From a virus (lineage: Duplodnaviria > Heunggongvirae > Uroviricota > Caudoviricetes), in the IMG/VR virus record IMGVR_UViG_2703718819_000006: a DNA stretch of 64,000 bases. The stretch is one strand, 5' to 3'. Below, piece after piece: positions 8,437-59,577 of this stretch. How positions within the stretch are numbered: the first letter of the stretch is position 1; every line of letters starts with the position of its first letter. The position numbers and the translations under genes are program-made. The notes under the pieces were generated by a model. It ran no database searches and was not told the origin of the DNA. It saw nothing but the letters and a program-made list of their open reading frames with translations.

Positions 8437-10011
8437 TCACTCGTTCTCTTGAGTAGATGAGTCCCCATTCCCTCGGGGTTGATCTTGCCCGCTTTCTTGG
8501 GCTGCACCACGATCATAAGTAAGTACTGACTTATTTTCAAGGGTATTTAGATCATTTTTTGGAGGAAAATTCAAGAGATCTTTATCAAATTCCTTTTTCA
8601 TCGCCTCAGTAATGTTCGGGAAAATCTTCTCAATAAGCATTTCCATCTGGTGACGACGTACAGAGTCCGGTGCCTGAAGTAATGACAGTTTCTCGGCAAC
8701 AGCAAATTCATCAGTAAGGCCACGAATATCGAAACTTTCTGGATACGCAATTAAAGAGTGGTCTTCGTCCAGATCTACCCCCATCCATTTCGCAACCAGT
8801 AGCATGATTTGGCGTTCAGCCCTTTCCAGACGCTCTGCTTTTGTGACAAGCAAGCTATTTACACGCTGGAAGTCATACATTTTTGCGGCACCAGATGAAT
8901 TATCGATTCCCTGTGCGTTGTCCTGCTTCGTTCGCTCACCAGCTACACCAACTGAATGGTAGATTTCGTTAATCACCGTCTTAATCGTAGTGATGATCAT
9001 CTGAGCTTGTTTCGGGTCTGGTGACAGATAAAACGGCTGGTTTCCACCTTCAGAATCGTAGGTGAAGACTCGCTTTGTGCCCATTTCAAGCACTTTAGTG
9101 TGGTTTTCATCACCAGGTAAAAGCGACTGTACCGGTATAGCCAACTGGCTAAATGTCTGATCCTGAATAATGGCATCAAGGTTTGACAGATAGTTTGCAA
9201 CCGCACGATCAAGATAAGCGATATCATCGATCAACGATGGGCTGAAATACGGTGATTCACTTTCTCCAATACAATCAACAGGAAACACAGGAACTACGCC
9301 GAGATTATGCTCACCGCTATCCTCTAAAATAACTTTTGCCTGACGGCGACCTGCTCCACCAGCGCCCTTCTTCACTTCCTCACGGAACAGATACCACTCG
9401 TTTTGTGTCCACAGACGATAACGTTGGTATTCCTGACCTGTAGAAGTAAAAGGATCTGCGTCATCACGAGCGACTTCCACAATTAACGCCCACAACATAT
9501 TCCCGTCGTCGTCCCATGCCACATCCAGCATTTGCTGAGGTGAAATCCAGTAGGCGTAGGCGCGAGCATCTTTCTTTTTCTCGTCAGCTACTGACTCAAC
9601 ATCACCACTCATCGTGCTATCGACAACAACCCATATGCGACCGTAAATAGACGACTGCAAATCAATAGCGGCCATAAATGAGTCAATAGAGGCATTCTGG
9701 CGAGTCGCACGTTTCCAGAAATTGCGGATCTGCTCTGGTGCCTCTTCGATATTTCTATGAATGTCTTCTTTAAAGAGATATTTGTTGATGAGGTTTACCA
9801 CCTCACGAGTGTGGTTGAAACGATAAGCACGCTCAACTCGCTCCTTAAACTCCTGATCTCCCTCTTTAAAGTAACGAAAGATATTGTCTGTAAACCAACC
9901 ACGCCCGCCAGCGTAAGTGCTGGCGAGGAAGTCCCAATGTTCTTTTTTCTTTTCGTATTCCGGGTGGCGTCGCGCCACCAGATCCTTAATTTGTTTGTCG
10001 TTCAATTCCAT
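8437..10011 (-). CDS. portal protein
   Basis: 524 aa ORF immediately downstream of terminase large subunit; size and position typical. Confidence 0.6.
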   Translation of the reverse strand: MELNDKQIKDLVARRHPEYEKKKEHWDFLASTYAGGRGWFTDNIFRYFKEGDQEFKERVERAYRFNHTREVVNLINKYLFKEDIHRNIEEAPEQIRNFWKRATRQNASIDSFMAAIDLQSSIYGRIWVVVDSTMSGDVESVADEKKKDARAYAYWISPQQMLDVAWDDDGNMLWALIVEVARDDADPFTSTGQEYQRYRLWTQNEWYLFREEVKKGAGGAGRRQAKVILEDSGEHNLGVVPVFPVDCIGESESPYFSPSLIDDIAYLDRAVANYLSNLDAIIQDQTFSQLAIPVQSLLPGDENHTKVLEMGTKRVFTYDSEGGNQPFYLSPDPKQAQMIITTIKTVINEIYHSVGVAGERTKQDNAQGIDNSSGAAKMYDFQRVNSLLVTKAERLERAERQIMLLVAKWMGVDLDEDHSLIAYPESFDIRGLTDEFAVAEKLSLLQAPDSVRRHQMEMLIEKIFPNITEAMKKEFDKDLLNFPPKNDLNTLENKSVLTYDRGAAQESGQDQPRGNGDSSTQENE

Positions 10012-10022
10012 TTGAATAACCT

Positions 10023-10042
10023 TAGATAATTACTTACCTATC
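10023..10042. promoter_or_regulatory. family-2 palindrome TAGATAATTACTTACCTATC
   Basis: Overlaps TerL stop, 12 bp upstream of portal start. Confidence 0.4.
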
Positions 10043-11294
10043 GAGAACCACCAAGAATAACACGGTTTTTGACTGGATACCTACGATGTACTGGATAGCC
10101 CAATGCGTCTGCACTATGCTCAATGCCACCTGTCTTATCCATATCTCGTGTTCCAGGCTTGTAGATGACTTTTTCCAGTGAATCAATCAAATGCTTGCAC
10201 TTCGGATCGATATACAACCGGATATCTCCAGATGCGGTCATCAGCATTCGGTTAACAGCATTAACACGATCCGCAATTGGCGGGTGCTTTTTCGAATAAT
10301 CGACACGTAAGAATCCCTTCTCTTTGAATATGTCGACGTCAGACTCCCCGCGAGCATGTTGGCGATAAGCACCTGCCGGATCTGGAAATACCGTTATCTG
10401 TGATTTCCAGCGCCAGAAGCGTCTCTCAAGCTCATCACAAACCTCTGCCGTGTTAGAGGAAAAGAGCACCAGTTCATCAATTGCCCATAGCTCACCGTTT
10501 GGCTGAGGTTGCAAAATTACGGAAGACATCGGGTCAATGTTGAAGTCCTGCCCTACCCATATAGGCAACCGAGGGTTGAACTGAAGCGGTTTTACATGCA
10601 CGTTACGATCGAACGGGTAGTAAACGCGCCCGGACATATTTTCAAAGCTGGCCAGGTACTCCTGAGCGAACGATTTAGGGTCCATATCGTTCTTAGCAGC
10701 TTCAATTTCCGCCGTAGGCACAAACGGAGAATCAGCAGTTACAAACTGCCAGCTCTTCCACTGTCCCTTTCTTTGCAGCTCTACGTTCTGGCCTATAGTC
10801 CACAGTTTGTGAAATTCCGAGAAGCCTTTTGGCGTACCAATGATCAGTGCACCGCCGCGTGTCGATGAAAGGGTAGGTCGTAGCACCTTGTACCAGGTGT
10901 CAGCCTTCATATCCTGAAATTCATCAAGCACTACAAAATGCAATGCAACGCCGCGCAGAGTGTCAGGCTTATCAGCACCTTTGAGGGCGATCTCCGAACC
11001 GTTCTTCAACACGATTGTCATCGTGGTGTCGTTCTTTTTCCTAACCCACTTACGAGGCAGAACTTCCTGTATATCGTCCCACAAAATCTGGCGAGCCATC
11101 TGGTAAGTAGGAGCGACATACCAGACCCTTTGCTTTTTTTCCTTTGCCGCCGCACGAATAATAGTGGAGATCGACAACCGGGATTTTCCCCAGCGTCGAC
11201 CAGCACAAACAACTTTAAATCGATGCGGAGACTGGAAGACTTTCATCTGTCCAGAATGCAGTTGCACAAGACTGAGCGAGGACGGGATTGCCAT
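10038..11294 (-). CDS. terminase large subunit
   Basis: 418 aa; N-terminal Walker A (VVCAGRRWGKS), Walker B-like VLDEFQD, C-terminal nuclease-like region; preceded by small-terminase-like gene. Confidence 0.8.
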   Translation of the reverse strand: MAIPSSLSLVQLHSGQMKVFQSPHRFKVVCAGRRWGKSRLSISTIIRAAAKEKKQRVWYVAPTYQMARQILWDDIQEVLPRKWVRKKNDTTMTIVLKNGSEIALKGADKPDTLRGVALHFVVLDEFQDMKADTWYKVLRPTLSSTRGGALIIGTPKGFSEFHKLWTIGQNVELQRKGQWKSWQFVTADSPFVPTAEIEAAKNDMDPKSFAQEYLASFENMSGRVYYPFDRNVHVKPLQFNPRLPIWVGQDFNIDPMSSVILQPQPNGELWAIDELVLFSSNTAEVCDELERRFWRWKSQITVFPDPAGAYRQHARGESDVDIFKEKGFLRVDYSKKHPPIADRVNAVNRMLMTASGDIRLYIDPKCKHLIDSLEKVIYKPGTRDMDKTGGIEHSADALGYPVHRRYPVKNRVILGGSR

Positions 11295-11926
11295 TATTCG
11301 TCCTCCCCTTCACTTCCATCATCTGTCGCATCAAATTCGCTTAGAGCTTCTTCTTCCAACGTCTCAAGCAATTCGTCATCGATGATTTCAGGCTCGTCGT
11401 CTTCCTGACGTAATTTCGCCACCTGGGAAGGCGTAAGCTCACCAAATACCAGGTTCGGAATTTCTTCCTCGTCATTTTCCGCATGATCCATGCCCAATGC
11501 TTTGGACGAAACTTCAAAGCATTTTGCAAGGGTATTACTGGCTCTCTGTAAGCTCTTGAGAGAATCCTCAATCGCCCCTAAAGGCTTACCCTCACGTTTG
11601 GCCGTAGTGACTTCGACCATCACCATCTGCCCCAACGCATACGCCCAGCCGTCATAACGTGTACGACGTTCTTCTATCTTTTCCGCACGGGCTTTAGCGC
11701 GAAGCTCTGCGTCAGATTTAAGAGACTCACGAACCATCTTCCCAACAGAGTCCGCGCCTTTCTCTAATCCTCGCTTTTTGAAATGTCTGGAGAGTGTTTC
11801 ACGACGAATGCCGTACTCTTCCTCCAGCTTTGAGAGTGTATATTCGCCTGACGTCCATTTGGCTTCAGCTTCGGCCCACTCCGCTGGTGTCAGGCGAGTT
11901 TTTACCTCGTCTTTTTCGACCGTCAT
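11294..11926 (-). CDS. terminase small subunit (HTH N-terminus, acidic C-terminus)
   Basis: 210 aa; N-terminal HTH-like segment (TLSKLEEEYGIRRETLSRHFKKRG), strongly acidic tail; stop overlaps TerL start. Confidence 0.5.
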   Translation of the reverse strand: MTVEKDEVKTRLTPAEWAEAEAKWTSGEYTLSKLEEEYGIRRETLSRHFKKRGLEKGADSVGKMVRESLKSDAELRAKARAEKIEERRTRYDGWAYALGQMVMVEVTTAKREGKPLGAIEDSLKSLQRASNTLAKCFEVSSKALGMDHAENDEEEIPNLVFGELTPSQVAKLRQEDDEPEIIDDELLETLEEEALSEFDATDDGSEGEDE

Positions 11927-12022
11927 AGATCCCTCTAAAACACACAGAGCGCGTCCATGCGCTCTAAAACAACTTGTTTACTGCATCTGCTAACCAACTT
12001 GTTTTCTGGGGTGTTTAATTAG

Positions 12023-12119
12023 GTCTGGCATGTCTTACGAAGCCTGCTTCCGTATATATATTTAATAAGTTACTTATTATTTATATACAGAAGCAGGTCT
12101 TTAAATAAGCTCCCAGACC
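12023..12119. repeat. nested long palindrome (core 12043-12098, arms CCTGCTTCCGTATATA / TATATACAGAAGCAGG around AT-rich palindromic loop; outer GGTCTGG/CCAGACC)
   Basis: Seen in sequence; near-identical copy at 42072-42130. Confidence 0.7.
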
Positions 12120-12121
12120 GA

Positions 12122-12388
12122 TTACATCACCAGTAACTTCGCTTTGGCTCGACCTAAAGTAGTTAACCCAAGAGTTCGGCGGTGATAGCGATTGTCACTG
12201 CGTTGGCGCGTATGCCCTTTCTCCACCAGCCCCTTTTTTATCAGAGCGCGAATTGAGAACTGGATACTTTGCTTGGTTGTCTTGTACGGCAAAACTTCAA
12301 GCAATTCGTCCAGGTCAAGTAGATGACCTCGCTCATAACCGAGATTGAGCGTTTTGATGATGTCCTTTTGTTTATCGGTTAACGTCAT
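12122..12388 (-). CDS. small basic protein, possible DNA-binding regulator
   Basis: 88 aa, Lys/Arg-rich; no motif-level assignment. Confidence 0.3.
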   Translation of the reverse strand: MTLTDKQKDIIKTLNLGYERGHLLDLDELLEVLPYKTTKQSIQFSIRALIKKGLVEKGHTRQRSDNRYHRRTLGLTTLGRAKAKLLVM

Positions 12389-12397
12389 GGCAAATCC

Positions 12398-13297
12398 TTA
12401 TGCCGGTAAAGCAATTTCTAACGGTTTATCCAAAGGTTGTTTGTCGAATGCCAGCAGTGGCAGCGTGTCAGGCAGTCGACGACCAAAGTCAGGGTTTCGA
12501 TACACACCATACAACGGAGACGTAAAGCTCAGGTTGTGAATGTCCTTGAGCAGCTTCACAATGCTGGCCTCGTCCACCAGACTGTCGGCAATGTCCTGAA
12601 TCGTCGTGCCACGATTCCGCCCAGCTTTTGCCAGGGAACTGTTCTTGTGGTAGTCCGCCACCAGATCACGCAGTGCACGGCGACGACGAGACTCGCTCAT
12701 AGCGAACAACTCTTTGACGATCGCCTCGTTATCACCCGGGTCGGAGCGGAAATGGCGCTGGAACACACGCAGTGCACTTTCATAGCTCTTCGGTCGCTCA
12801 GGGCGGATGAACTTAAACCCTGCTTTCATGGCGAAGGGATTGTATTTGCTCATCGATGACTGGATCTCAATGATTGGCCGGTCATGCATCCTGCTAACCA
12901 GGTTAATCATTCGATAAGAGACGCCTACGCCACGGTACTGAGTATCCACAACTGAGCGGCTGATCACCGCAAAGTTGTTATTCACGTACCGGCCCCAGTA
13001 CTGGTTAGCCACGGTGGTATTGGTGGTTGGTTTCAACTTAGGAAACATGCGATGGCGAGGTGCCAGCAGAAGTTTCGGGTAAGCCATAACCACGACGCCC
13101 ACCAGACGGTCATCCAGTTCGCAGCGATAGTATGTTGGCGCGAAAGGTTTGCCGTCTGTTTTGTAGTGAAGCGACTTAAGAGCGTGCCAGTCCTCTACAG
13201 TTCCCTTTGTGACAGTCATTCGCTCCAGAAAGTCCAGATGACGCGGAAACTCTTCAGGGCGGTAGCGTTTGATGATGATATCTGCCATGTCGATCAC
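12398..13297 (-). CDS. hypothetical protein (possible GNAT-like motif RGVGVSYRMI), last gene of ParB/ATPase operon
   Basis: 299 aa; start overlaps stop of 13294..13548. Confidence 0.35.
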   Translation of the reverse strand: MIDMADIIIKRYRPEEFPRHLDFLERMTVTKGTVEDWHALKSLHYKTDGKPFAPTYYRCELDDRLVGVVVMAYPKLLLAPRHRMFPKLKPTTNTTVANQYWGRYVNNNFAVISRSVVDTQYRGVGVSYRMINLVSRMHDRPIIEIQSSMSKYNPFAMKAGFKFIRPERPKSYESALRVFQRHFRSDPGDNEAIVKELFAMSESRRRRALRDLVADYHKNSSLAKAGRNRGTTIQDIADSLVDEASIVKLLKDIHNLSFTSPLYGVYRNPDFGRRLPDTLPLLAFDKQPLDKPLEIALPA

Positions 13298-17473: not shown

Positions 17474-17938
17474 ATGAAGTCTCCCATACTGTTCACTTTC
17501 TGTTCTAAAACTATCATGAAATACTCGCTTCTCCCTCTACTAACGTTACCAGTGTTGATGCTTACCGCGTGCCAATCACGCCCAATATCAATCCATGACG
17601 CCAAACCAGCACCGCAGGCCAAAGTGTTCAAGTATCAAAGCGCAGCGCCAGCTACGTTGGTGGTAATGAGAGACACAGGTTTTGTAGGAGCTGGATGTGA
17701 TGCTTCCATTTTCATCAACGGCGAAACTGTCGCAAAACTGGCTACAGGCGAAAAAGCGACTTTCCATTTAAATGCCGGAGAATTAATTGTGGGTGCATCT
17801 CTTGAAGGTGCAGGTTTATGTGCTCTAAACCCCGCTCGTCAAGAGCGGGAAACGACTCTGAAGAATGGAGACACAAAAGCGTTCAGGGTGTTCACCAGCA
17901 ATTCTGGTGACATCGACATTCTGCCAACAACTCTGTGA
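17474..17938 (+). CDS. putative lipoprotein
   Basis: 154 aa; hydrophobic N-terminus ending in lipobox-like LTAC; SD GGGAGA upstream. Confidence 0.45.
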   Translation: MKSPILFTFCSKTIMKYSLLPLLTLPVLMLTACQSRPISIHDAKPAPQAKVFKYQSAAPATLVVMRDTGFVGAGCDASIFINGETVAKLATGEKATFHLNAGELIVGASLEGAGLCALNPARQERETTLKNGDTKAFRVFTSNSGDIDILPTTL

Positions 17939-17942
17939 TGAC

Positions 17943-18467
17943 ATGACAACCAAAGATATTACCTACGGTATCCAAGCTGAACTCTGGCCGCGAGATTACA
18001 CTAACGTTGAAAAACTACTGATGTTCTGGCGCAGAGAACAAATTCCTGTAAGGGTCACTCTCGAAGATGGCCAGGCGTTTTGCATGTACGTTTATGGCCT
18101 CATGCCATCTCGTAACAAAGTTGACCTTTGCCCAGCCCCTTTTGACAAAGAAAATCGCATAAGGCTCCCACTTGAACGCATTAGTACAATTGAATCAGGT
18201 GTGGTTGACAGTATCGCTCACGATTTCAAAGGTCGACTAACAGTTCACCCTGATTATGTCGATAATCGGCCATCACGCCGCGATTTTTTTGCAATTTGCA
18301 ACCAAGCCTACAAAGCAAACAAATCTATAAGGGTGTACATGGCGGATGGCCGTGAAATTGAGGGGGTGTCAGCAGGCGCAGATGCTTGTCAGGTTACACT
18401 ACGTGTCGAGAACGGTAGAAAAATAGTTGTTTTGTTCGATTGGGTTGAACGAATTTTGCCTTTTTGA
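17943..18467 (+). CDS. hypothetical protein (start at MTTKD, downstream of ORF-track start)
   Basis: ORF-track start 17865 overlaps previous gene; ATG at 17943 follows its stop. Confidence 0.4.
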   Translation: MTTKDITYGIQAELWPRDYTNVEKLLMFWRREQIPVRVTLEDGQAFCMYVYGLMPSRNKVDLCPAPFDKENRIRLPLERISTIESGVVDSIAHDFKGRLTVHPDYVDNRPSRRDFFAICNQAYKANKSIRVYMADGREIEGVSAGADACQVTLRVENGRKIVVLFDWVERILPF

Positions 18468-20699: not shown

Positions 20700-20825
20700 G
20701 AATGCAGCCGTTTCCCGAAAAAATCCTGGCCGTTTCCCGTCGGCTCATGAATACGTTCCTCGCCGTTTCTGAAATTTCCCTGCGGCAGCTGGTGGCTATA
20801 GAGAAAGGGCCGTTTCTGGCCCTCT
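20700..20825. repeat. array of GCCGTTTC(C/T) direct repeats (at least 4 units)
   Basis: Seen in sequence; second array at 23835-23965. Confidence 0.6.
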
Positions 20826-23143: not shown

Positions 23144-23491
23144 TTACGCGAATACCTCAAGAAACTCCTGAACGTCCCAATGCTGGACGAGGTGAAGATA
23201 GACCTTAGAAATCACGTCATTTTCGCTATCGCATGTGAAGTAGTACTTCTGGCTGCGGTTGTATGTGTCCACACAAAATTCGCTCATATCCATAAAGTCA
23301 GCATCTTCACCCAGGTCGCTGATCATCAAAGCAGGTGCGTCATCACGAGTCATCAGTTCCAGCACCCATCTTGAATTAATCAGAGTGGAAGACCAACCTT
23401 CTAACTCATAAAACTGATCAAACTCTTTTTGAGTTAATTTCTTGATTTGGTTGATGTCGATATTTGCAAACATAAAGCAATCCTTAAACAA
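23144..23491 (-). CDS. hypothetical acidic protein
   Basis: 115 aa; family-1 motif upstream. Confidence 0.45.
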   Translation of the reverse strand: MFKDCFMFANIDINQIKKLTQKEFDQFYELEGWSSTLINSRWVLELMTRDDAPALMISDLGEDADFMDMSEFCVDTYNRSQKYYFTCDSENDVISKVYLHLVQHWDVQEFLEVFA

Positions 23492-23501
23492 CTTGTTTTC
23501 T
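23486..23501. promoter_or_regulatory. family-1 motif AAACAACTTGTTTTCT
   Basis: Abuts start at 23491. Confidence 0.5.
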
Positions 23502-23834
23502 TGATGGTGTTATTATCGCAACAACGCACAGGCGAAAAAGGATTTTATTCCGGTGAATGTGGTTTTGGCAGTGAGTTTTCAGGTTCAGTACCGAGTACAC
23601 TTTTTACATTATTCTGATTTAGTGGCCGAAGGTGGCTGGTGGGCAGAATAATCATCTCCCCGAAAACCTACTGAAATCGATTGTGACCCGTTGGCTGTCT
23701 GGCACAATTACGCTGTAGTTGGGCATTCAGAGGGAATCCAACGGTAAGTAAGTTCGCCTGCACGTGAGCGCCTCTCTTCTTCCCGCACATTACAGGTGGG
23801 TAGCCGCAACTCTCCCTCTCGCTATACCGGTACG

Positions 23835-23965
23835 CCGCCGTTCCTGAACCGGCATCGAGCCTTTTCCCGAAATCCACACAGGCAACTCGACCGTTTCCCT
23901 GAAAACCTCCAGCCGTTCCTCGAAGGCAACCCAGCCGTTTCTGTAGCGGGATGCAGCCTTTTCCC
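23835..23965. repeat. array of GCC(G/T)TT(T)CC(C)TG direct repeats (6 units, ~22-25 bp spacing)
   Basis: Seen in sequence. Confidence 0.6.
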
Positions 23966-24229
23966 TGTATGGACCGAAGGCTGACCGTAGGGGTGTTACG
24001 GGGGATAAAATCAGGAGTTGAATAAATACGAAAAAGGAGGCGACACCCCTCCTTCCCTCCCCACTTATACATACCTGTCTTGTTCGCTATACATGTTGTG
24101 TTTTCTTCGTGTTTTATCTGTTTCAACCTCTCTATAGGCGTTAATGCTCACTCCTTCCAGAACGTTCTATACGGCGACTATTTCTGTTGGTGAATTGGGT
24201 GTGTTGTTTTCTCTGTCGGTGTATGTGGT

Positions 24230-24660
24230 TTCGTTCGTTTTGCGGTGGTTCTTCTATGGGGTGTTCTCGTCGTTTTGGTGATTGTTCTTCTCCGTGTATG
24301 GAGTAATGGCAGGTGGGCGATTCCTTTCGTTGTTGTGTTTGAGTTGTTTGTCTGGAGTGTGTGGAAGGCTTTTGTAGTTATTCGTGTATTGGGTAATGGC
24401 GTTTCCCGTGATTGTTATGTTTCGTGTCTTTTGGGGTTGAGAGAATCCTTGCGGTTACAGGCTTCGTTGGGTTTTCAGTGATTCTGGTGTTTCTTCGCTG
24501 TTTGGGGAATGGCGTGTCGTGGGTATCGCGCGTATGAATGTTTTCGGATTGCCTGTGAAAGTTAGGTTGGTTGTCCGGTAGCCTGGGGAGAAGAGGTGGG
24601 TCTTTTCGGTAGCCTGCCATAAAGAGGTTGGTTGTTTTTGGGAATGGCATTTGTGTTATT
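24230..24660. repeat. GT-rich strand-skewed region with ~100-bp periodic GG(G)TAATGGC(G) units
   Basis: Four units near 24290, 24385, 24497, 24637; plus strand almost devoid of A/C runs. Confidence 0.5.
24548..24645. repeat. ~30-bp direct repeats CGGTAGCCTG..AAGAGGTTGGTTGT (3 units)
   Basis: Seen in sequence; matches 21400-21485. Confidence 0.5.
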
Positions 24661-25028
24661 TAGTTGTTTTGTTATGCCTGAAAATAAGTTGTTTATATGG
24701 TTGTGTAACGCAACGGGAGCGATTTTGAGCGTGTGTTTTTGTTGGTAGTGTGTTGGGTCGTCTGTGGTGAAAATTGGACGCTGTGGCGCTGTCTGCTGCG
24801 TAGAGTTACGGGTATAAGAAGTGATGTGTGAAAACGTCAATTTTTTAGACCAAATCGGGTGAAAGCGTTGACGTTTCGTTGATCTGTTATTTAGTTGTTT
24901 TCTTATTTGTATAAACAACCATAACCTATTGATATTTAAGGGTATGATTGCAGGTATGGAAGTGGGGTAGTGGCGATCAACGGATTCTTATAGAAAAGAA
25001 TCAAATTGTGACCGCCATTATCAATGTT

Positions 25029-25763
25029 TTACATAGTTTTGTTTAGCAGAGAGAGAATTTCATCACTAATTTCACTCGCCTGTTTGATAGCCAATGCAGT
25101 TACCTCTTCTATGGTTGGTGACTGTTGATGCTCATGTTTGGTTTCAGTTATGACAATGTGTTCTTCACCTGAATTTGCGCATAGTGCCGCATTGACGATA
25201 AGGTTTGAGTAAGAATTTAGCAGAGCACTGTTGATGAACGCTTTCACGGTATTACTGTCTGCACCAAATACATCTTTTCTGACCGCTTCAGCCTCACAGC
25301 GAACCCCTGCAGCAACATCGTGAAGAACATGTATGGCCTTGGGGCTTGTTTGTTCACAGTACTCAATCATTATTGTCGAATTGTTCTGTTCAACAAACGA
25401 TCTGATGCCTGACGATTCACCCATAGCATCGAAGGCAGCGTGACCCGCACTGGTAGAGATATCTTCATAGAGTTCTTCATCGCTATCTTTTTCTTCAGGT
25501 GTCGAGGTGTCTTCATCGTCGTAATAGATATTGCCTTTAATCAGTGTTTTGGACACTTGATATAAACAATAAGAAACGAGATTTAAGCATTGGATTTTAG
25601 CTGTATTGTCCTTTGTCGCCTCGCTCTTCAGTTCTTTCGCTTCTTCAGTAAGGCTGTTGATAAGACTTTGTATTTTTTCCAACGCGTTAGGCGCACACTC
25701 CGCGTTGTCCATAAAGAATTTATAACCAGTCCCAGGGATTTCTAAACTTTTCAACTTTTTCAT
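25029..25763 (-). CDS. hypothetical protein
   Basis: 244 aa ORF, acidic stretches. Confidence 0.45.
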   Translation of the reverse strand: MKKLKSLEIPGTGYKFFMDNAECAPNALEKIQSLINSLTEEAKELKSEATKDNTAKIQCLNLVSYCLYQVSKTLIKGNIYYDDEDTSTPEEKDSDEELYEDISTSAGHAAFDAMGESSGIRSFVEQNNSTIMIEYCEQTSPKAIHVLHDVAAGVRCEAEAVRKDVFGADSNTVKAFINSALLNSYSNLIVNAALCANSGEEHIVITETKHEHQQSPTIEEVTALAIKQASEISDEILSLLNKTM

Positions 25764-26269: not shown

Positions 26270-28303
26270 TTACTTAACTTGGTGGCCTGGTTTAGCACCA
26301 GCATCCGGGCTTAACAGGAAGATATCTTTTCCGCCAGGGCCAGCAGCCATCACCATGCCTTCGGAGATACCGAAGCGCATTTTACGCGGTGCCAGGTTAG
26401 CCACCATAATGGTGTGACGACCAATCAGTGCCTGTGGATCTGGATAAGCGGAACGAATGCCTGAGAAGACATTACGTTTTTCTCCGCCGAGATCCAGTGT
26501 CAGGCGCAGCAGTTTGTCAGAACCTTCGACAAACTCCGCGTTTTCAATCAGTGCCACGCGCAGGTCAACTTTGGCGAAGTCGTCAAAGGTGATGGTTTCC
26601 TGAATCGGATCGTCTGCCAGCGGGCCAGTTACCGGTGCGGCAGCGGCTTTGACTTCTTCTTTAGACGCTTCCACCAGTGCTTCAACCTGCTTCATATCGA
26701 TACGGTTATACAGAGCTTTGAACGGATTCACTTTATGTCCCAACAGCGGTTGCTGGATACCATCCCAGGTCAGTTCCGTATTGAGGAATGCCTCTGCACG
26801 TTCAGTCAGTTTTGGCAGTACCGGTTTCAGGTACGTCATCAGCACGCGGAACAGGTTAATGCCCATAGAGCAAATCGCCTGCAGATCGGCATCGCGACCT
26901 TCCTGCTTCGCCACCACCCACGGAGCCTGTTCATCGACATAGCGGTTAGCCAGGTCAGCCAGTGCCATGATTTCACGGATAGCTTTACCAAATTCGCGGC
27001 TTTCCCATGCTTCGCCAATCACTTCAGCGGCATCAGTAAAGGTTTTGTACAGTTGCGGGTCAGCCAGTTCGCTTGCCAGCACGCCGTCAAAACGCTTGTT
27101 GATAAAGCCTGCATTACGGGAGGCCAGGTTAACCACTTTGTTCACGATATCGGCATTCACGCGCTGAACGAAATCCTCCAGGTTGAGATCGATATCATCA
27201 ATGCGCGAAGAGAGTTTCGCAGTGTAGTAGTAACGCAGGCTGTCGGCGTCAAAATGATTCAGCCAGGTGCTGGCTTTAATAAAGGTGCCGCGAGACTTGG
27301 ACATCTTCGCACCGTTCACCGTCACATAGCCATGAACAAACAGGTTGGTCGGCTTGCGGAAGTTGCTGCCTTCTAGCATGGCAGGCCAGAACAGGCTGTG
27401 GAAGTAAACGATATCTTTGCCGATGAAGTGGTACAGCTCGGCGGTAGAGTCTTTCTTCCAGTATTCGTCGAAGCTGGTGGTGTCGCCGCGTTTGTCGCAC
27501 AGATTCTTGAAGGAACCCATGTAGCCAATCGGCGCGTCCAGCCAGACGTAGAAATATTTGCCCGGCGCGTTCGGAATTTCAAAACCGAAGTAAGGCGCAT
27601 CGCGGGAGATATCCCACTGTTGCAGGCCGGATTCAAACCATTCCTGCATTTTGTTTGCCACCTGCTCCTGCAACGCGCCGCTGCGGGTCCATGCCTGCAA
27701 CATTTCGCTGAAAGAAGGCAGATCAAAGAAGAAGTGTTCAGAATCACGCATTACCGGCGTAGCGCCAGAAACCACCGATTTCGGTTCAATCAGTTCAGTC
27801 GGGCTGTATGTCGCGCCGCAGACTTCACAGTTATCGCCGTATTGATCTGGCGCTTTACATTTCGGGCAGGTGCCTTTTACAAAACGGTCCGGCAGGAACA
27901 TGCCTTTTTCCGGGTCGTACAGCTGAGAGATGGTGCGGTTTTTAATAAAACCGTTCTCTTTCAGGCGAGTATAGATAAGCTCAGACAACTGACGGTTCTC
28001 TTCGCTGTGCGTCGAGTGATAGTTGTCATAGCTGATGTTAAAGCCTGCGAAATCAGTCTGATGTTCCTGACTCATTTCGCCAATCATCTGTTCCGGTGTG
28101 ATACCAAGCTGCTGTGCTTTCAGCATGATTGGCGTACCGTGGGCATCGTCGGCACAGATGAAATTAACCTCGTGGCCGCGCATTCGCTGGTAACGAACCC
28201 AGACATCAGCCTGGATGTGCTCCAGCATATGGCCGAGGTGGATTGAGCCGTTAGCGTACGGCAGCGCGCACGTCACCAGAATTTTCTTCGCGACTTGGGT
28301 CAT
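26270..28303 (-). CDS. metG: methionine--tRNA ligase
   Basis: Translation from ATG at 28303 ([48 protein letters not shown]...) has class-I HIGH motif and KMSKS (GAKMSKSRG) and matches my recollection of enterobacterial MetG essentially residue for residue; the 43-aa extension in the ORF track is spurious. Confidence 0.95.
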
Positions 28304-28460
28304 AGTAGGCATTACTTCTTTGTAGTGAAAAGGGGCTTGATAGTAACAAAATGGCCTTATGTCTGCCATGTGATAACAGCATTTCTCATAAATGATTAAA
28401 TGTCGTAGCTGGAGTACACTACAAGGCGACAATTGCGCAAATTAAAATAAAGGAGACGGG

Positions 28461-29561
28461 ATGAGCGAGTCCAAATCGCCGGATGCCCTGAGAGCAATGG
28501 TAGCCGGTACGCTGGCTAATTTTCAGCACCCAACCCTGAAACACAACCTGACTACGCTTAAAGCGTTACACCATGTTGCGTTGATGGATGACACACTGCA
28601 TGTCGAACTAATCATGCCTTTCGTGTGGAATAAGCCTTTTGAAGACCTGAAAGAGCAATGTAGTGGTGATCTGCTCCGTATCACTGGCGCAAAGGCTATT
28701 GACTGGAAGCTGTCGTACAACATTGCCACGCTTAAGCGCGTCAAAAACCAACCAGGCATTAATGGCGTTAAGAACATTATCGCCGTCAGCTCAGGCAAGG
28801 GCGGCGTGGGTAAATCCTCCACGGCGGTAAACCTGGCACTGGCGTTGGCTGCTGAAGGTGCGAAAGTTGGTATTTTGGATGCCGATATCTATGGTCCATC
28901 AATTCCAACCATGCTGGGCGCGGAAAACCAACGTCCAACCTCACCTGATGGTACTCACATGGCACCTATCATGTCTCATGGCCTGGCAACCAACTCTATT
29001 GGTTATCTGGTCACCGACGACAATGCAATGGTGTGGCGTGGACCGATGGCAAGCAAGGCGCTGATGCAGATGTTGCAGGAAACTCTATGGCCTGATCTGG
29101 ACTATCTTGTTCTCGATATGCCGCCGGGCACTGGTGATATTCAGTTGACGCTGGCGCAGAACATTCCTGTAACTGGTGCTGTTGTGGTAACTACGCCGCA
29201 AGACATCGCGCTGATCGATGCGAAGAAAGGCATTGTGATGTTCGAAAAAGTCGAAGTGCCGGTACTGGGTATCGTCGAAAACATGAGTGTGCATATTTGC
29301 AGTAACTGCGGTCATCACGAGCCAATTTTTGGCACCGGTGGCGCAGAGAAACTGGCCGAGAAATACAACACGCAGTTGTTAGGCCAAATGCCACTTCATA
29401 TCTCACTTCGTGAAGATCTGGATAACGGAACACCAACCGTTATTAGTCGTCCAGATAGTGAATTTACGGCTATTTATCGTGACCTCGCAGATCGCGTTGC
29501 TGCCCAAATGTATTGGCAAGGTGAAGTAATACCTGGCGAAATCGCATTCCGCGCAGTGTGA
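28461..29561 (+). CDS. apbC: Fe-S cluster carrier ATPase ApbC/Mrp
   Basis: 366 aa; deviant Walker A SGKGGVGKS, CxxC (CSNCGH); divergent from metG as in enterobacterial chromosomes. Confidence 0.9.
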   Translation: MSESKSPDALRAMVAGTLANFQHPTLKHNLTTLKALHHVALMDDTLHVELIMPFVWNKPFEDLKEQCSGDLLRITGAKAIDWKLSYNIATLKRVKNQPGINGVKNIIAVSSGKGGVGKSSTAVNLALALAAEGAKVGILDADIYGPSIPTMLGAENQRPTSPDGTHMAPIMSHGLATNSIGYLVTDDNAMVWRGPMASKALMQMLQETLWPDLDYLVLDMPPGTGDIQLTLAQNIPVTGAVVVTTPQDIALIDAKKGIVMFEKVEVPVLGIVENMSVHICSNCGHHEPIFGTGGAEKLAEKYNTQLLGQMPLHISLREDLDNGTPTVISRPDSEFTAIYRDLADRVAAQMYWQGEVIPGEIAFRAV

Positions 29562-57978: not shown

Positions 57979-58080
57979 ATCCACTATGGAGAGCAAAGAA
58001 ACCTCTGTAGAGAGCTGAATAACCGCTATGAAGAGTAAAACAACCACTCTGGAGAGCTGTATATATCCACTGTAGAGAGT
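57979..58080. repeat. iteron array A: five 16-bp repeats (A/T)(T/A)CC(A/G)CT(A/G)T(A/G)GAGAG(C/T) at 21-bp phasing
   Basis: Units at 57979, 58000, 58021, 58042, 58065. Confidence 0.75.
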
Positions 58081-58238
58081 AGAGCACATTGTCTTTTATG
58101 GATAACTTAATGACTTAATTCTTCATTAACATACTGATATACATAGATATATTTTAAACTCTACTCTTAGTCATGATTCTTATGTCCTTAAATATCCACA
58201 GAAGAGTAGAGTTACCTGTTCTTGAAATCCTCTGATTT

Positions 58239-58247
58239 TTATCCACA
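58239..58247 (+). promoter_or_regulatory. consensus DnaA box TTATCCACA
   Basis: Exact 9-mer between AT-rich tract (58085-58200) and iteron array B; second near-consensus box TTATCCACT at 57866-57874. Confidence 0.55.
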
Positions 58248-58358
58248 GGCCCGATCCAGTAATTCAGATCACAAAGAGAACCAAAGAGACCCATAAAGAC
58301 CCAATAAGATCCCCGCCCACCTCAAACCGTTGTGCCATCTGCCTTCAGACATGATCGA

Positions 58359-58481
58359 TATCCACTATAGAGAGCGAATAATCCACTATAGGGAGCAAAG
58401 CAACCACTATAGAGAGGAGAAAAACCACTATAGACGGTAGGATAACCGCTGTGATGAGTGCTACTATCCACTGTAATCAGC
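58359..58481. repeat. iteron array B: six repeats ATCCACTATAGAGAGC-type at 21-22 bp phasing, directly upstream of rep
   Basis: Units at 58359, 58381, 58402, 58423, 58444, 58466. Confidence 0.75.
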
Positions 58482-58521: not shown

Positions 58522-59577
58522 ATGAGCGAAAACGGCAATAAAAACATAGCGATCGTTGAAGCATTTTCAGAAACAGATAAAAAGACAGGCGAAGTTGTTA
58601 CGTTGGTTCCTAACACTAATAACACTGTTCAGCCTGTTGCTTTGATGCGTCTGGGCCTCTTCGTTCCGACGCTGAAATCGACATCCAGAGGAAGAAAGGG
58701 GCAAATGGTCTCTATGGATGCCTCTGCTGAACTCAAACAGCTGTCTCTGGCAAAAGCCGAAGGGTACGAAGACATAAGGATCTCTGGCCTTCGGCTTGAT
58801 ATGGATAACGACTTTAAAACGTGGGTGGGAATAATCCACGCGTTTGCCAAACACAAGGTCGTTGGCGATACTGTCACGTTGCCGTTCGTTGAGTTTGTAA
58901 GGCTGTGTGGCATTCCGACCGCCAGGTCATCAGCGAAGTTACGCAAACGCCTGGACAGTTCGCTAAGCCGTATTGCCACAAACACCATCTCGTTCCGTAG
59001 CAAAGGCTCTGATGAGTTTTACGTAACGCATCTTGTGCAAACGGCAAAATATAGTGTCAAGCACGATACGGTCGAACTGAAAGCAGATCCCAAGATTTTC
59101 GAACTCTACCAGTTCGACAAAAAGGTTCTTCTGCAACTCCGGGCTATAAACGAACTCTCAAGAAAAGAATCCGCTCAGGCGCTTTATACTTTTATTGAAA
59201 GTTTGCCGCCTGATCCGGCACCAATATCACTAGCCCGTTTACGCGCCAGACTTAATCTGACAAGTCGCACTATTACTCAGAATGCGACGGTAAGAAAGGC
59301 TATGGAACAGCTGCGAGAGATAGGATATCTCGATTACACGGAAGTTAAGCGCGGAAACTCGGTCTACTTCGTCATCCACTATAGGCGGCCAAAGTTACGC
59401 CAGGCACAAATATCAACAAAAATCGATAATGATGAGACGGAATATAGCCTCCCAGATGAGAATCAAGATGACATTATCGACGTTGTGCCTGACGAAAAAG
59501 AAGGCAAAATGGTCATGTTGAGTAAAGAAGAACTGGCACTTCTCGAAGAGTTGCGCAAGGCAAAGACTCGCAAATAG
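58522..59577 (+). CDS. iteron-binding replication initiator (Rep)
   Basis: 351 aa plus-strand ORF flanked on both sides by iteron arrays with DnaA box and AT-rich tract; assignment by architecture. Confidence 0.6.

Follow-up and report, generated by a model that had tools for sequence, protein, structure and literature searches.

A conserved strand-asymmetric non-coding tract in SSU5/pHCM2-type phage-plasmids, with a tentative role in transcription termination beside the cargo slot

Introduction

The DNA analysed here is a stretch of 64,000 nucleotides (the window) from IMG/VR record IMGVR_UViG_2703718819_000006. It derives from an Escherichia coli phage-plasmid of the SSU5/pHCM2 type and is 97-98% identical to phage Cyrano (pLF82). 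Phage-plasmids of this type occur widely among clinical E. coli, Klebsiella, Salmonella Typhi, Shigella and Enterobacter. The window contains a gene-free tract of which one strand is dominated by G and T, and the question is what such a tract is for. The literature searched gave no account of the region, of the virion ends of SSU5-type elements, or of their lytic origin.

Composition and extent

24080-24850, minus strand: skewed tract; the plus strand has 31% G, 41% T, 15% A and 13.5% C

The tract is about 770 bp long, with a G+T fraction of 0.68-0.79 in 200-bp windows, compared with a window-wide mean of 0.498 (sd 0.047). Between 24001 and 25000 the GC skew is +0.34 and the AT skew -0.35. The tract is the sole 300-bp window with G+T of at least 0.64 or at most 0.36, both in the 64-kb window and in the 112-kb replicon NZ_CP101923. 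The first-pass annotation had described a GT-skewed region at 23640-24960; the skew is real but narrower, and the left third of that region (23640-24080, G+T 0.46-0.54) is an unskewed, distinct module to the left of the tract. The GC content of the tract is 43.5%, so that it is not A+T-rich. RNA of its minus strand has 41% A, 31% C, 15% U and 13.5% G, and is untranslated.

Conservation and genomic setting

The first-pass annotation had made its proposal depend on conservation in relatives, and this was found: the gap persists, skew included, in 839 plasmids from six genera, in 12 phage records and in 67 IMG/VR loci. Tract sequences are about 66% identical among relatives and all of them are skewed, the composition being maintained despite the drift in sequence. 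Exchange between G and T is the commonest substitution class in the tract (24-32%, versus 8-13% in the neighbouring module), and several short motifs are near-invariant across genera. The tract is a genuine conserved non-coding cis-region.

The flanking genes are almost all read leftward, on the minus strand, and the A+C-rich strand is their coding strand in every relative examined, including one record deposited in the opposite orientation. In two Klebsiella elements the gene to the right points away from the tract, which is nevertheless present. No comparable tract was found at other operon ends in the replicon. Stable maintenance of plasmid pMT1, which has no tract, implies that the tract does not serve plasmid maintenance.

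The tract adjoins a variable cargo slot, the content of which differs between relatives and includes resistance and defence genes. A metG-like ORF lies to the right at 26270-28432, in agreement with the distance of about 1.2 kb to a block of host genes given earlier. The accompanying idea that this block arrived by aberrant packaging or recombination at this site found no support, the tract bordering a general variable slot. A shorter match in large Klebsiella plasmids, which travels with a DUF262 gene and a type I restriction-modification system, was considered as an independent module and rejected: it derives recently from a Klebsiella phage-plasmid, as a fragment cut short by an insertion sequence.

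Coding potential and RNA structure

The earlier statement that the region lacks a credible ORF stands. ORFs of 45-197 aa are present on both strands, some depositors have annotated them (e.g. CYRAN_103 and CYRAN_104), and the first plus-strand ORF carries two indels that are multiples of 3. The products would be small hydrophobic peptides from the plus strand or low-complexity proteins rich in His, Pro, Thr and Asn from the minus strand, an explanation to which we give hardly any credence. Against it, no ORF of the tract is conserved, with frames, starts and stops varying between relatives; the best plus-strand ORF is frameshifted in one Klebsiella element and prematurely truncated in that of Cronobacter. 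Substitutions in the long minus-strand ORFs are distributed over the codon positions as 9/14/9, 12/12/10 and 27/34/26, without bias, and these ORFs differ among relatives by indels of 1, 2, 8 and 13 nt. The reading frame of one and the same DNA motif changes from genome to genome, and the NCBI PGAP annotation places nothing here in most plasmid records. Stop codons are scarce in the tract because of its base composition.

No Rfam family matched the region, either at the gathering threshold or with the cut-off relaxed to E<=1. In an alignment of 18 diverse representatives, analysed with Alifold and column-shuffle tests, the structure conservation index of the tract was 0-0.3 on both strands, and folding z-scores were -0.76 and +0.70; the only conserved structure was a stem-loop at the right border. 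A structured non-coding RNA or known Rfam family was rejected on these grounds, the covariance models giving no match and secondary structure not being conserved. A type III toxin-antitoxin RNA array, in which a toxin gene follows near-perfect tandem repeats of 36-45 nt, was likewise rejected, as the region has no tandem repeats and no toxin gene lies downstream.

The minus-strand RNA stands out by its lack of structure. Across 757 nt (24151-24907) its C/G ratio is at least 1.5, the next-longest such run in the window being about 215 nt. Four of the five least-structured 150-nt minus-strand RNA segments of the window fall in the tract; their minimum free energies range from -6.6 to -13.6 kcal/mol, where the window averages -36 (sd 7.6), and a 901-nt fold of the region's RNA reaches only -139 kcal/mol.

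Repeats and motifs within the tract

24288-24310, plus strand: motif copy 1, TTCTCCGTGTATGGAGTAATGGC; minus-strand RNA GCCAUUACUCCAUACACGGAGAA; near-invariant in the alignment
24378-24400, plus strand: motif copy 2, TTATTCGTGTATTGGGTAATGGC
24491-24513, plus strand: motif copy 3, TTCTTCGCTGTTTGGGGAATGGC
24576-24637, plus strand: two tandem 31-bp units, CGGTAGCCTG-N7-AGAGGT(G/T)GGT; column identity 94%
24636-24648, plus strand: motif copy 4, short form, TTTTGGGAATGGC

Periodic units of about 100 bp had been reported for this region. Four copies of the motif G[GT]AATGGC (also written GTAATGGC) are real, at 24303, 24393, 24506 and 24641 with spacings of 90, 113 and 135 bp, but true periodicity and a tandem array are absent: Tandem Repeats Finder detected no tandem array in the region, and a Fourier scan of the tract gave no significant period, including at about 100 bp and 10-11 bp. 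A structure of tandem repeats or periodic units was thereby ruled out. Dinucleotide shuffles of the tract contained on average 0.13 copies of the motif, and none of 2,000 shuffles had four or more. In relatives of the pHCM2 type the copies number six, at spacings of 52/41/45/90/142 bp. The motif lacks symmetry, and the divergent lineage has the variants GAGATGGC and GGGATGGC in its place; read on the minus strand, the repeated conserved motif is GCCAUUAC(C/U)C(A/C)AUACACGGAGAAGAA.

The motif copies and the 31-bp units could be putative sites of an array bound by a phage protein, such as the small terminase at a pac site, a ParB-domain protein or a nucleoid-like organiser. An array of this kind, the reading favoured by the first-pass annotation, is in our judgement improbable. 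The 4-6 motif copies share one orientation and are near-invariant across genera, two proteins with ParB N-terminal domains are encoded beside the terminase genes, and the pHCM2-type spacing of 41-52 bp, or multiples of it, is roughly like that of F sopC, the units of which are 43 bp long. Helical phasing and significant periodicity are absent, however, the asymmetric motif differs in the divergent lineage, and binding sites would leave unexplained why the skew continues through the spacers. A packaging site or terminus, as had been proposed, is not borne out: terminase genes, which adjoin pac and cos sites, are about 13 kb away, and none of the 12 phage records begins or ends at the tract, weak evidence in that depositors often re-orient records. 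A sopC-like partition centromere was also rejected, as there is no tandem array, the motif is asymmetric, the par genes lie elsewhere, and pMT1 partitions stably without the tract.

The 31-bp units were compared with the RfaH ops element (GGCGGTAGCGTG), which acts on the non-template strand upstream of a long operon. This candidate was rejected: the two copies of CGGTAGCCTG match at only 10 of 12 positions, the likeness is limited to E. coli-type elements, the divergent Klebsiella lineage having the core CGTGTGCCTG, and most relatives have no plus-strand operon downstream.

Promoter- and operator-like elements

23486-23517, minus strand: early-gene promoter/operator serving the ORF at 23144-23491, the first early gene leftward
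24654-24694, plus strand: operator-like element, a 22-nt repeat TGTTATTTAGTTGTTTTGTTAT followed by the palindrome AAATAAGTTGTTT
24830-24906, no strand assigned: inverted repeat GAAAACGTCAA-N27-TTGACGTTTC and a second copy of the 22-nt repeat (24885-24906)

The early promoter has a -10 box GATAAT at 23512-23517 on the minus strand and the palindrome AAACAACTTGTTT at 23486-23498. The palindrome occurs 15 times in the window (0.46 expected), every time between a GATAAT-like box, which it follows by 11-13 nt, and an ATG. It resembles the C1 operators of phage P1 in being a short operator-like sequence, AAACAAnTTGTTT, dispersed at early promoters, with two copies in the region; it differs from them in sequence, is palindromic and only a putative operator, and the likeness concerns the surroundings of the tract and not the skew. 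The element at 24654-24694 is oriented opposite to the early-gene promoter copies, and its palindrome is perfect in relatives. The block at 24830-24906 is the best conserved of the region (column identity 91-94%); at the equivalent position a divergent Klebsiella element has a perfect copy of the early promoter/operator, directed leftward into the tract. A scan of the tract for sigma-70 promoters found three, none beyond chance (4.2 expected), and on the minus strand near the right end there is a single hit, peculiar to this genome.

Transcription and a candidate Rho-dependent terminator

24972-25016, minus strand: stem-loop without a U-run; the stop codon that closes the last cargo gene (25029) lies immediately before it

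This stem-loop marks the boundary between conserved and variable DNA. Its G-U wobbles allow pairing in minus-strand RNA only, and the divergent Klebsiella element retains a 12-bp stem made from different sequence. The structure conservation index of 0.42 is the highest of the tract and its right border, yet below the level of structured RNAs.

Published RNA-seq of LF82/Cyrano lysogens, available as gene-level counts (PMC9928086, S1 Table), gives 45-590 FPKM for CYRAN_102 just upstream of the tract and 0-14 FPKM for CYRAN_103 within it. CYRAN_105, just downstream, reaches about 220 FPKM from its own promoter, independently of the tract (PMC9928086, S1 Table). The long non-coding transcript suggested by the first-pass annotation is addressed in part: in lysogens the leftward strand gives about 0 FPKM, and no conserved RNA structure was found.

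The explanation that we tentatively prefer, at somewhat less than an even chance, is that the tract and the stem-loop at 24972-25016 together form a long, orientation-specific Rho-dependent terminator or insulator, placed where the leftward operon with its replication and cargo genes ends. On passing out of the last cargo gene, polymerase would produce about 800 nt of untranslated, C-rich, G-poor and nearly structure-free RNA, the kind of RNA that Rho loads onto. Rho would then free the polymerase before it reached the repressor-controlled early genes at 20.8-23.5 kb, and exonucleases would trim the freed RNA back to the conserved stem-loop, giving the cargo mRNA a stable 3' end. Since the tract borders a slot with variable cargo, the early genes may in this way be shielded from cargo promoters.

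Rho-dependent terminators have a C-rich, G-poor segment of at least 70-80 nt in unstructured, untranslated RNA. The run with C/G of at least 1.5 extends here over 757 nt, the structure conservation index is about 0, and the RNA is untranslated. Like the lambda tR1 rut site, trp t' and the CA-rich RNA-polymerase-binding aptamers (iRAPs) of E. coli, the tract is C-rich, G-poor, unstructured, untranslated and downstream of coding sequence; the upstream stem-loop without a U-run could be a trimmed 3' end, and the gene-level RNA signal drops here in vivo. Of the E. coli aptamers of this kind that promote termination by Rho, 28.5% share a CA-rich motif (PMC6847712). A motif of this type would account for the richness in A as well as in C.

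Several observations argue against this explanation. A Rho loading site needs about 80 nt and the tract, at 770, is roughly ten times longer than is typical. Rho favours C/U-rich RNA, and the depletion of U, as strong as that of G, is not explained by Rho alone; YC dinucleotides in the minus-strand RNA are enriched only 1.3-fold. Similar tracts are absent from other operon ends, and the two Klebsiella elements keep the tract with a neighbour transcribed away from it. The motifs, near-invariant across genera, would not be required by a purely compositional signal. Unlike the known terminators, the tract is kept in synteny through six genera, and operator- or promoter-like elements are found inside it and at its right end. 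The RNA signal falls already at the right edge, so that the stem-loop or another signal could be the real terminator.

The conserved short motifs and embedded operator-like sites, which Rho does not explain, suggest an additional regulated layer. That the tract is no passive terminator but yields an induced, structure-free A+C RNA or R-loop, which acts either as a decoy for Rho or the FljA-like protein, through the GCCAUUACCCAAUAC-type motif, or as a primer for lytic replication, is quite unlikely in our estimate. In the latter case the R-loop would form the primer of a lytic origin of a new kind, beside the iteron-like module.

Taken by itself, a decoy would be a lytic-phase RNA of about 700-850 nt, A+C-rich and single-stranded, made only after induction and titrating an RNA-binding factor, for which Rho, Hfq and the element's own FljA-like translational repressor are candidates. 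We hold this to be distinctly improbable. An RNA unable to pair with itself would suit a protein sponge, the conserved repeated motif is read on this strand, and the operator-like sites suggest control by the repressor. Among the element's products is a FljA-family protein (17865-18467; Pfam Flag1_repress, E = 2.5e-84); its identity stays at about 79% even in Klebsiella and Y. pestis, which are non-motile, a hint at a target besides host flagellin. The motif has the 9-mer ACCCAAUAC in common with the 5' leader of E. coli fliC; a chance match has a probability of about 10-20% by hand estimate, and the 9-mer is present in only 8 of 81 flagellin leaders. In those leaders the 9-mer takes in the 3' arm of a hairpin, and the tract motif is unable to fold into such a hairpin; the match is kept as a weak lead only. 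Against the decoy it also counts that no transcript is seen in lysogens, that pMT1 retains the FljA-like gene yet has no tract, and that no convincing promoter or conserved terminator was found to bound such an RNA.

Flanking repeats and possible replication origins

23635-23642, plus strand: Chi site GCTGGTGG, kept in 7 of 10 aligned relatives
23837-23965, plus strand: six iteron-like direct repeats GCC(G/T)TT(T/C)C(C/T), spaced 22/30/23/22/22 bp
24005-24057, minus strand: A+T-rich stretch followed by a hairpin GGAGG-N7-CCTCC and a T-run, predicted by terminator scan

The window has 15 Chi sites, compared with 1.2 expected. RecA loading downstream of Chi was considered as a function of the tract and rejected: seen from the conserved Chi, the tract is on the 3' side, and RecBCD, by its known mechanism, would degrade the tract before recognising the site.

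The six-repeat module lies outside the tract and has no G+T skew. A paralogous module is found at 20707-20770, about 3.1 kb away. Both are kept in SSU5, Cyrano, PhiR41_1 and the Cronobacter element; pMT1 retains the 20.7-kb module only. The repeats of the region, which may bind protein, are also written GCCGTTTCC. To the right of the six repeats, at the left end of the tract, the hairpin at 24005-24057 looks like an intrinsic terminator by its predicted stem and T-run; in the alignment of relatives the GGAGG-N7-CCTCC stem is not conserved outside the E. coli type. Only about 30 bp of this element (24005-24036) are A+T-rich.

A plasmid replication origin, another function proposed earlier, was rejected, as was a site for copy control by RepB. 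The repB gene is about 34 kb from the tract and has its own 21-bp iterons, AACCACTATAGAGAGC, at 57979-58479, which are unrelated to anything in the region, and pMT1 replicates without the tract.

A transcription-activated lytic origin deserves more weight, though we consider it unlikely. A repressor-controlled leftward promoter at the right end would transcribe the tract, and the untranslated, structure-free RNA would re-anneal to its template and form an R-loop, or would open the duplex in some other way, beside the six repeats. A putative phage initiator would bind the repeats at 23837-23965, and phage RNase HI and the replisome would begin synthesis. The layout recalls the lambda origin, in that six direct repeats in helical phase, two turns or so apart, give way to a short A+T-rich stretch and then to a palindrome, all downstream of operator-like sequences, and the second repeat cluster 3 kb away recalls phage P4, which has an ori/crr pair. 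The operator-like sites inside the tract and at its right end, and the early promoter/operator aimed into the tract in the divergent lineage, fit this reading, and silence in lysogens fits a repressed lytic function. Among the element's genes are those for RNase HI, a DnaB-like helicase, a primase and a Pol III alpha subunit, and the tract is dispensable for plasmid maintenance and unique in the replicon.

The differences from known origins are considerable. Iteron origins have at least 3-4 direct repeats of 17-22 bp in helical phase, as does the module at 23837-23965 outside the tract, and an adjacent cognate initiator gene, which is not found here: the small neighbouring proteins have no informative or Rep-like domain, and the genes for helicase and primase lie some 45 kb off. 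In lambda and P4 an initiator gene adjoins the origin, and there is an extended A+T-rich unwinding element, for which only the short stretch of about 30 bp at 24005-24036 might stand here, the tract being 43.5% GC. Promoters predicted at the right end match the -35 and -10 boxes poorly, and the cumulative GC skew has a turning point only at the tract itself. We know of no origin with a keto-skewed tract of 770 bp. R-loop regions such as the ColE1 RNA II origin, T4 oriF/oriG and the immunoglobulin switch regions share with the tract a long, strand-asymmetric, untranslated stretch, and the element has its own RNase HI; their RNA is G-rich, however, whereas the leftward RNA of the tract is rich in C and A, and an R-loop here is hypothetical.

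Significance

If the tract is an orientation-specific insulator, as we tentatively prefer, it would explain how these phage-plasmids take up arbitrary cargo without upsetting the circuitry of lysis and lysogeny, and it would be a compact natural part for transcriptional insulation. If instead it proved to be a lytic origin or the source of a decoy RNA, the tract would represent a cis-element of a new kind, defined by a strand that is unable to pair with itself. Either way, it is a sharply bounded, conserved and, in the literature searched, so far undescribed feature of SSU5/pHCM2-type phage-plasmids.

Element and gene layout

By sequence, the window is part of an SSU5/pHCM2-type phage-plasmid of Escherichia coli; positions 23500-25050 are 97.6% identical to phage Cyrano (pLF82, OV696614), and positions 23600-25000 are 98.2% identical to plasmid pEcFELIX526.1. 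The gene layout was assigned by synteny with an annotated relative.

Gene layout of the window
About 0-11 kb: structural and terminase genes
About 14-15.5 kb: two ParB-domain genes
15.6-20.2 kb, plus strand: short block with a DEAD-box helicase and an FljA-like protein
17865-18467, plus strand: FljA-family protein ('repressor of phase-1 flagellin'; Pfam E = 2.5e-84, weak Hfq-like C-terminal match)
20.8-23.5 kb, minus strand: five small genes
Right of the gene-free region, minus strand: run of cargo genes, with a coiled-coil protein and host-derived metG
Amid this run, plus strand: apbC
Beyond the cargo, up to about 57 kb, minus strand: DNA-metabolism genes
57979-58479: 21-bp iterons AACCACTATAGAGAGC in two clusters and GATC-rich DNA, ahead of repB
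58522-59577: repB, plasmid initiator

The repB gene, the iterons and the GATC-rich DNA are the plasmid replicon, a classical RepFIB-like origin. The metG and apbC (mrp) genes are divergent at 26270-29561, as they presumably also are on the E. coli chromosome; given that arrangement, the segment would be captured host DNA within a variable cargo slot. Elsewhere among the relatives, this position is occupied by DUF262 together with a type I restriction-modification system, by a GIY-YIG nuclease or by different genes. In the 112-kb replicon NZ_CP101923.1, a Pol III alpha-like (DnaE-like) gene at 8463-12775 appears split into ORFs of 787 and 389 aa, divided by an HNH endonuclease gene at 9629-10363 that may be an intein or intron-like insertion. 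Chi (GCTGGTGG) occurs 15 times on both strands of the 64-kb window (1.2 expected), including sites at 494, 9356, 12223, 16933, 20665, 20788, 21494, 23635 and 27473, a density close to the one seen in the E. coli chromosome. This abundance suggests selection for protection against RecBCD.

Composition and coding status

The first-pass annotation described 23640-24960 as strongly G+T-skewed. The skew is real and extreme, but it extends only over about 24080-24850 (the tract); 23640-24080 is unskewed and forms a separate module. G+T in the tract is 0.68-0.79 (window mean 0.498, sd 0.047), with T 41%, G 31%, A 15% and C 13.5% on the plus strand, and no other stretch of the window, or of the complete 112-kb replicon, deviates in this way. 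The proposed 100-bp units do not form a repeat array: Tandem Repeats Finder returned no array and a Fourier scan no significant period. Four copies of G[GT]AATGGC lie in the tract at spacings of 90, 113 and 135 bp, where dinucleotide-shuffled sequence holds 0.13 copies and 0 of 2000 shuffles reached four; pHCM2-type relatives have six copies, spaced by 52, 41, 45, 90 and 142 bp. These copies are the basis for reading the tract as a protein-binding DNA array, a pac site or other, which is quite unlikely in view of the location of the tract, the absence of helical phasing and the stability of plasmid pMT1 without it.

The absence of genes was borne out. Reading frames, starts and stops of the ORFs, on both strands, vary from relative to relative; the best plus-strand candidate is truncated in Cronobacter and frameshifted in one Klebsiella element, and in the long minus-strand ORFs codon-position substitution counts are flat and indels break the frame. 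A protein-coding tract is most improbable.

Conservation in relatives

An unannotated gap of 1.4-1.8 kb is present at the same syntenic position in 839 plasmids (from Klebsiella, Escherichia, Enterobacter, Salmonella including pHCM2, Citrobacter, Cronobacter and Shigella), 12 phage records (including SSU5) and 67 IMG/VR loci, with conserved small genes on its left and variable cargo on its right. All relatives contain a tract of 700-800 bp with G+T of 0.66-0.73, at identities to the window down to about 66%; a divergent Klebsiella element retains the whole architecture, though its FljA-like protein is only 35% identical. Exchanges between G and T are the top substitution class in the tract (24-32% of substitutions, versus 8-13% in the adjacent module), which fits a composition upheld under sequence drift. 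Near-invariant islands, the G[GT]AATGGC copies among them, overlie the skew.

Other near-invariant elements
24576-24637: two tandem 31-bp units
Further island: TAACGCAACGGGAGCGATT
24830-24877: inverted repeat GAAAACGTCAA-N27-TTGACGTTTC
24654 and 24885: two copies of a 22-nt element
24972-25016: stem-loop, the exact border to variable DNA

Divergence in one IMG/VR contig sets in within the loop of the border hairpin, upstream of TTTCTATAAGA, so the junction of conserved and cargo DNA can fall inside the hairpin. A Klebsiella phage-plasmid fragment in the large IncFIB/IncHI1B Klebsiella plasmid NZ_CP092410.1 (4700-5800) carries DUF262 and a type I restriction-modification system besides the tract's right half, its left end cut by an insertion-sequence end; it shows cargo passing from phage-plasmids into ordinary plasmids. 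As a module of its own, the shorter match that large Klebsiella plasmids contain was rejected, being a recent, insertion-sequence-truncated fragment. In Yersinia pestis pMT1 (NC_004835.1, 4950-5800), unrelated sequence replaces the tract and the downstream phage DNA. This stable plasmid keeps the neighboring genes, the FljA-like gene and the 20.7-kb-type repeat module, and has lost the tract (maximum G+T 0.58), which is thus dispensable for plasmid maintenance. No published description of the region was found in the literature searched.

Proposed replication and packaging functions

An origin or packaging site had also been proposed. A plasmid origin is disfavored by the repB iterons, which are unrelated and lie about 34 kb away; a RepB control site was rejected on the same distance and unrelated iteron sequence. 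The terminase genes are about 13 kb off and 0 of 12 phage records start or end at the tract, which speaks against a packaging site or terminus.

A lytic replication origin, recalling lambda ori, is suggested by six GCC(G/T)TT(T/C)C(C/T) repeats at 23837-23965 (spacing 22, 30, 23, 22 and 22 bp), followed by a short A+T-rich stretch and a palindrome, and by a paralogous module at 20707-20770; however, the neighborhood has no initiator gene, the tract itself is not A+T-rich, and helicase and primase are encoded far away, so that we regard such an origin as unlikely. Repeats of both modules (GCC(G/T)TT(T/C)CC, about 22 bp apart) share one orientation. The modules, 3.1 kb apart and each with a Chi site nearby, bracket the five small early genes and are conserved in SSU5, Cyrano, PhiR41_1 and a Cronobacter element.

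Leftward RNA and expression in lysogens

In every relative examined, the A+C-rich strand is the coding strand of nearly all flanking genes (minus strand). The leftward tract RNA contains A 41%, C 31%, U 15% and G 13.5%, with C/G of at least 1.5 over 757 consecutive nt (the second-longest such run of the window measures about 215 nt), and of the five 150-nt segments with the least structure in the whole window, four fall in the tract. An RNA of almost only A and C is unable to self-pair. No conserved structure was detected within the tract among 18 diverse representatives (structure conservation index 0-0.3, both strands), single-sequence folding z-scores were -0.76 and +0.70, and the region had no Rfam match even at E<=1.

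The border stem-loop lacks a U-run and lies just past the stop codon of the last cargo gene, directly upstream of the tract in the leftward direction. Its G-U wobbles (GGCGGUCA/UGAUCGCC and a GGUGG variant) would be A-C mismatches on the opposite strand, and a divergent lineage retains the hairpin as a 12-bp stem of different sequence; strand-specific wobbles and rebuilt stem together indicate that the hairpin acts in the leftward RNA.

Expression was taken as gene-level FPKM from LF82 lysogen RNA-seq (GEO GSE154648, re-analysed in PMC9928086). CYRAN_102, immediately upstream of the tract, has 45-590 FPKM, CYRAN_103, annotated inside it, 0-14, and CYRAN_105, immediately downstream with its own promoter, up to about 220 (PMC9928086). 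The gene-level drop from CYRAN_102 to CYRAN_103 suggests that, in lysogens, leftward transcription ends where the region has its right edge; the tract, next to the cargo slot, is silent there by these counts.

Operator-like palindrome and promoters

The window has 15 copies of the palindrome AAACAAnTTGTTT (0.46 expected).

Sites of AAACAAnTTGTTT
11967, 11992, 21335, 22099, 23002, 23486, 24682, 26122, 26173, 30111, 34383, 38924, 39653, 49873, 63686

Nine sites are on the minus strand, each 11-13 nt past a GATAAT-like -10 box and ahead of an ATG, the placement expected of an operator that overlaps early-gene transcription starts; several others adjoin hairpin terminators. The palindrome is probably a dispersed operator of a putative repressor of the element. 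The copy at 24682 lies inside the tract in reverse orientation, and a degenerate copy is found at its right end (24885-24906), which in the divergent Klebsiella element is a perfect promoter/operator sequence pointing leftward into the tract. After induction, a repressor-controlled promoter may therefore drive transcription of the tract as well, which keeps two rival readings alive. The element CGGTAGCCTG was rejected as an RfaH ops element because its likeness to ops is not conserved.

One of these readings, a lytic-phase single-stranded decoy RNA, draws on the FljA-family protein, conserved at about 79% amino-acid identity in Klebsiella elements and Y. pestis pMT1. Since neither host is motile, the protein may have a target other than host flagellin. 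FljA-type regulators block translation of fliC mRNA (PMC2652032), and the minus-strand tract motif shares ACCCAAUAC with the E. coli fliC leader. Yet this 9-mer is in only 8 of 81 flagellin leaders, where it contains the 3' half of a hairpin that could not fold from the tract motif, and pMT1 retains the FljA-like gene without the tract. The flagellin-leader link is a weak lead by motif likeness, and a decoy has a slim chance of being correct.

Proposed function

We infer Rho-type termination or insulation as the mechanism behind the tract. Tentatively, the leftward replication/cargo operon ends in a Rho-dependent terminator or insulator that stem-loop and tract form together and that works in one orientation, the favored reading though one that falls short of being probable; it would guard the repressor-controlled early genes against read-through from the slot of variable cargo. 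Rho loads on RNA that is untranslated, C-rich, G-poor and unstructured, and 3'-end mapping has shown RNAs freed by Rho to be trimmed back as far as an upstream stem-loop. A CA-rich motif is common to 28.5% of E. coli RNA-polymerase-binding aptamers promoting Rho termination (PMC6847712). All three fit a Rho terminator; against it stand a tract length tenfold in excess, a depletion of U that Rho does not require, the near-invariant motifs and operator-like elements inside the tract, and the lack of such a tract at any other operon end of the replicon. A more unusual identity for the tract, as a regulated decoy RNA or as an origin working through an R-loop, is rather unlikely. The region has a clear and unusual physical property: a 770-bp tract, kept across genera and unique in the replicon, whose transcript in the direction of the genes is unable to pair with itself.
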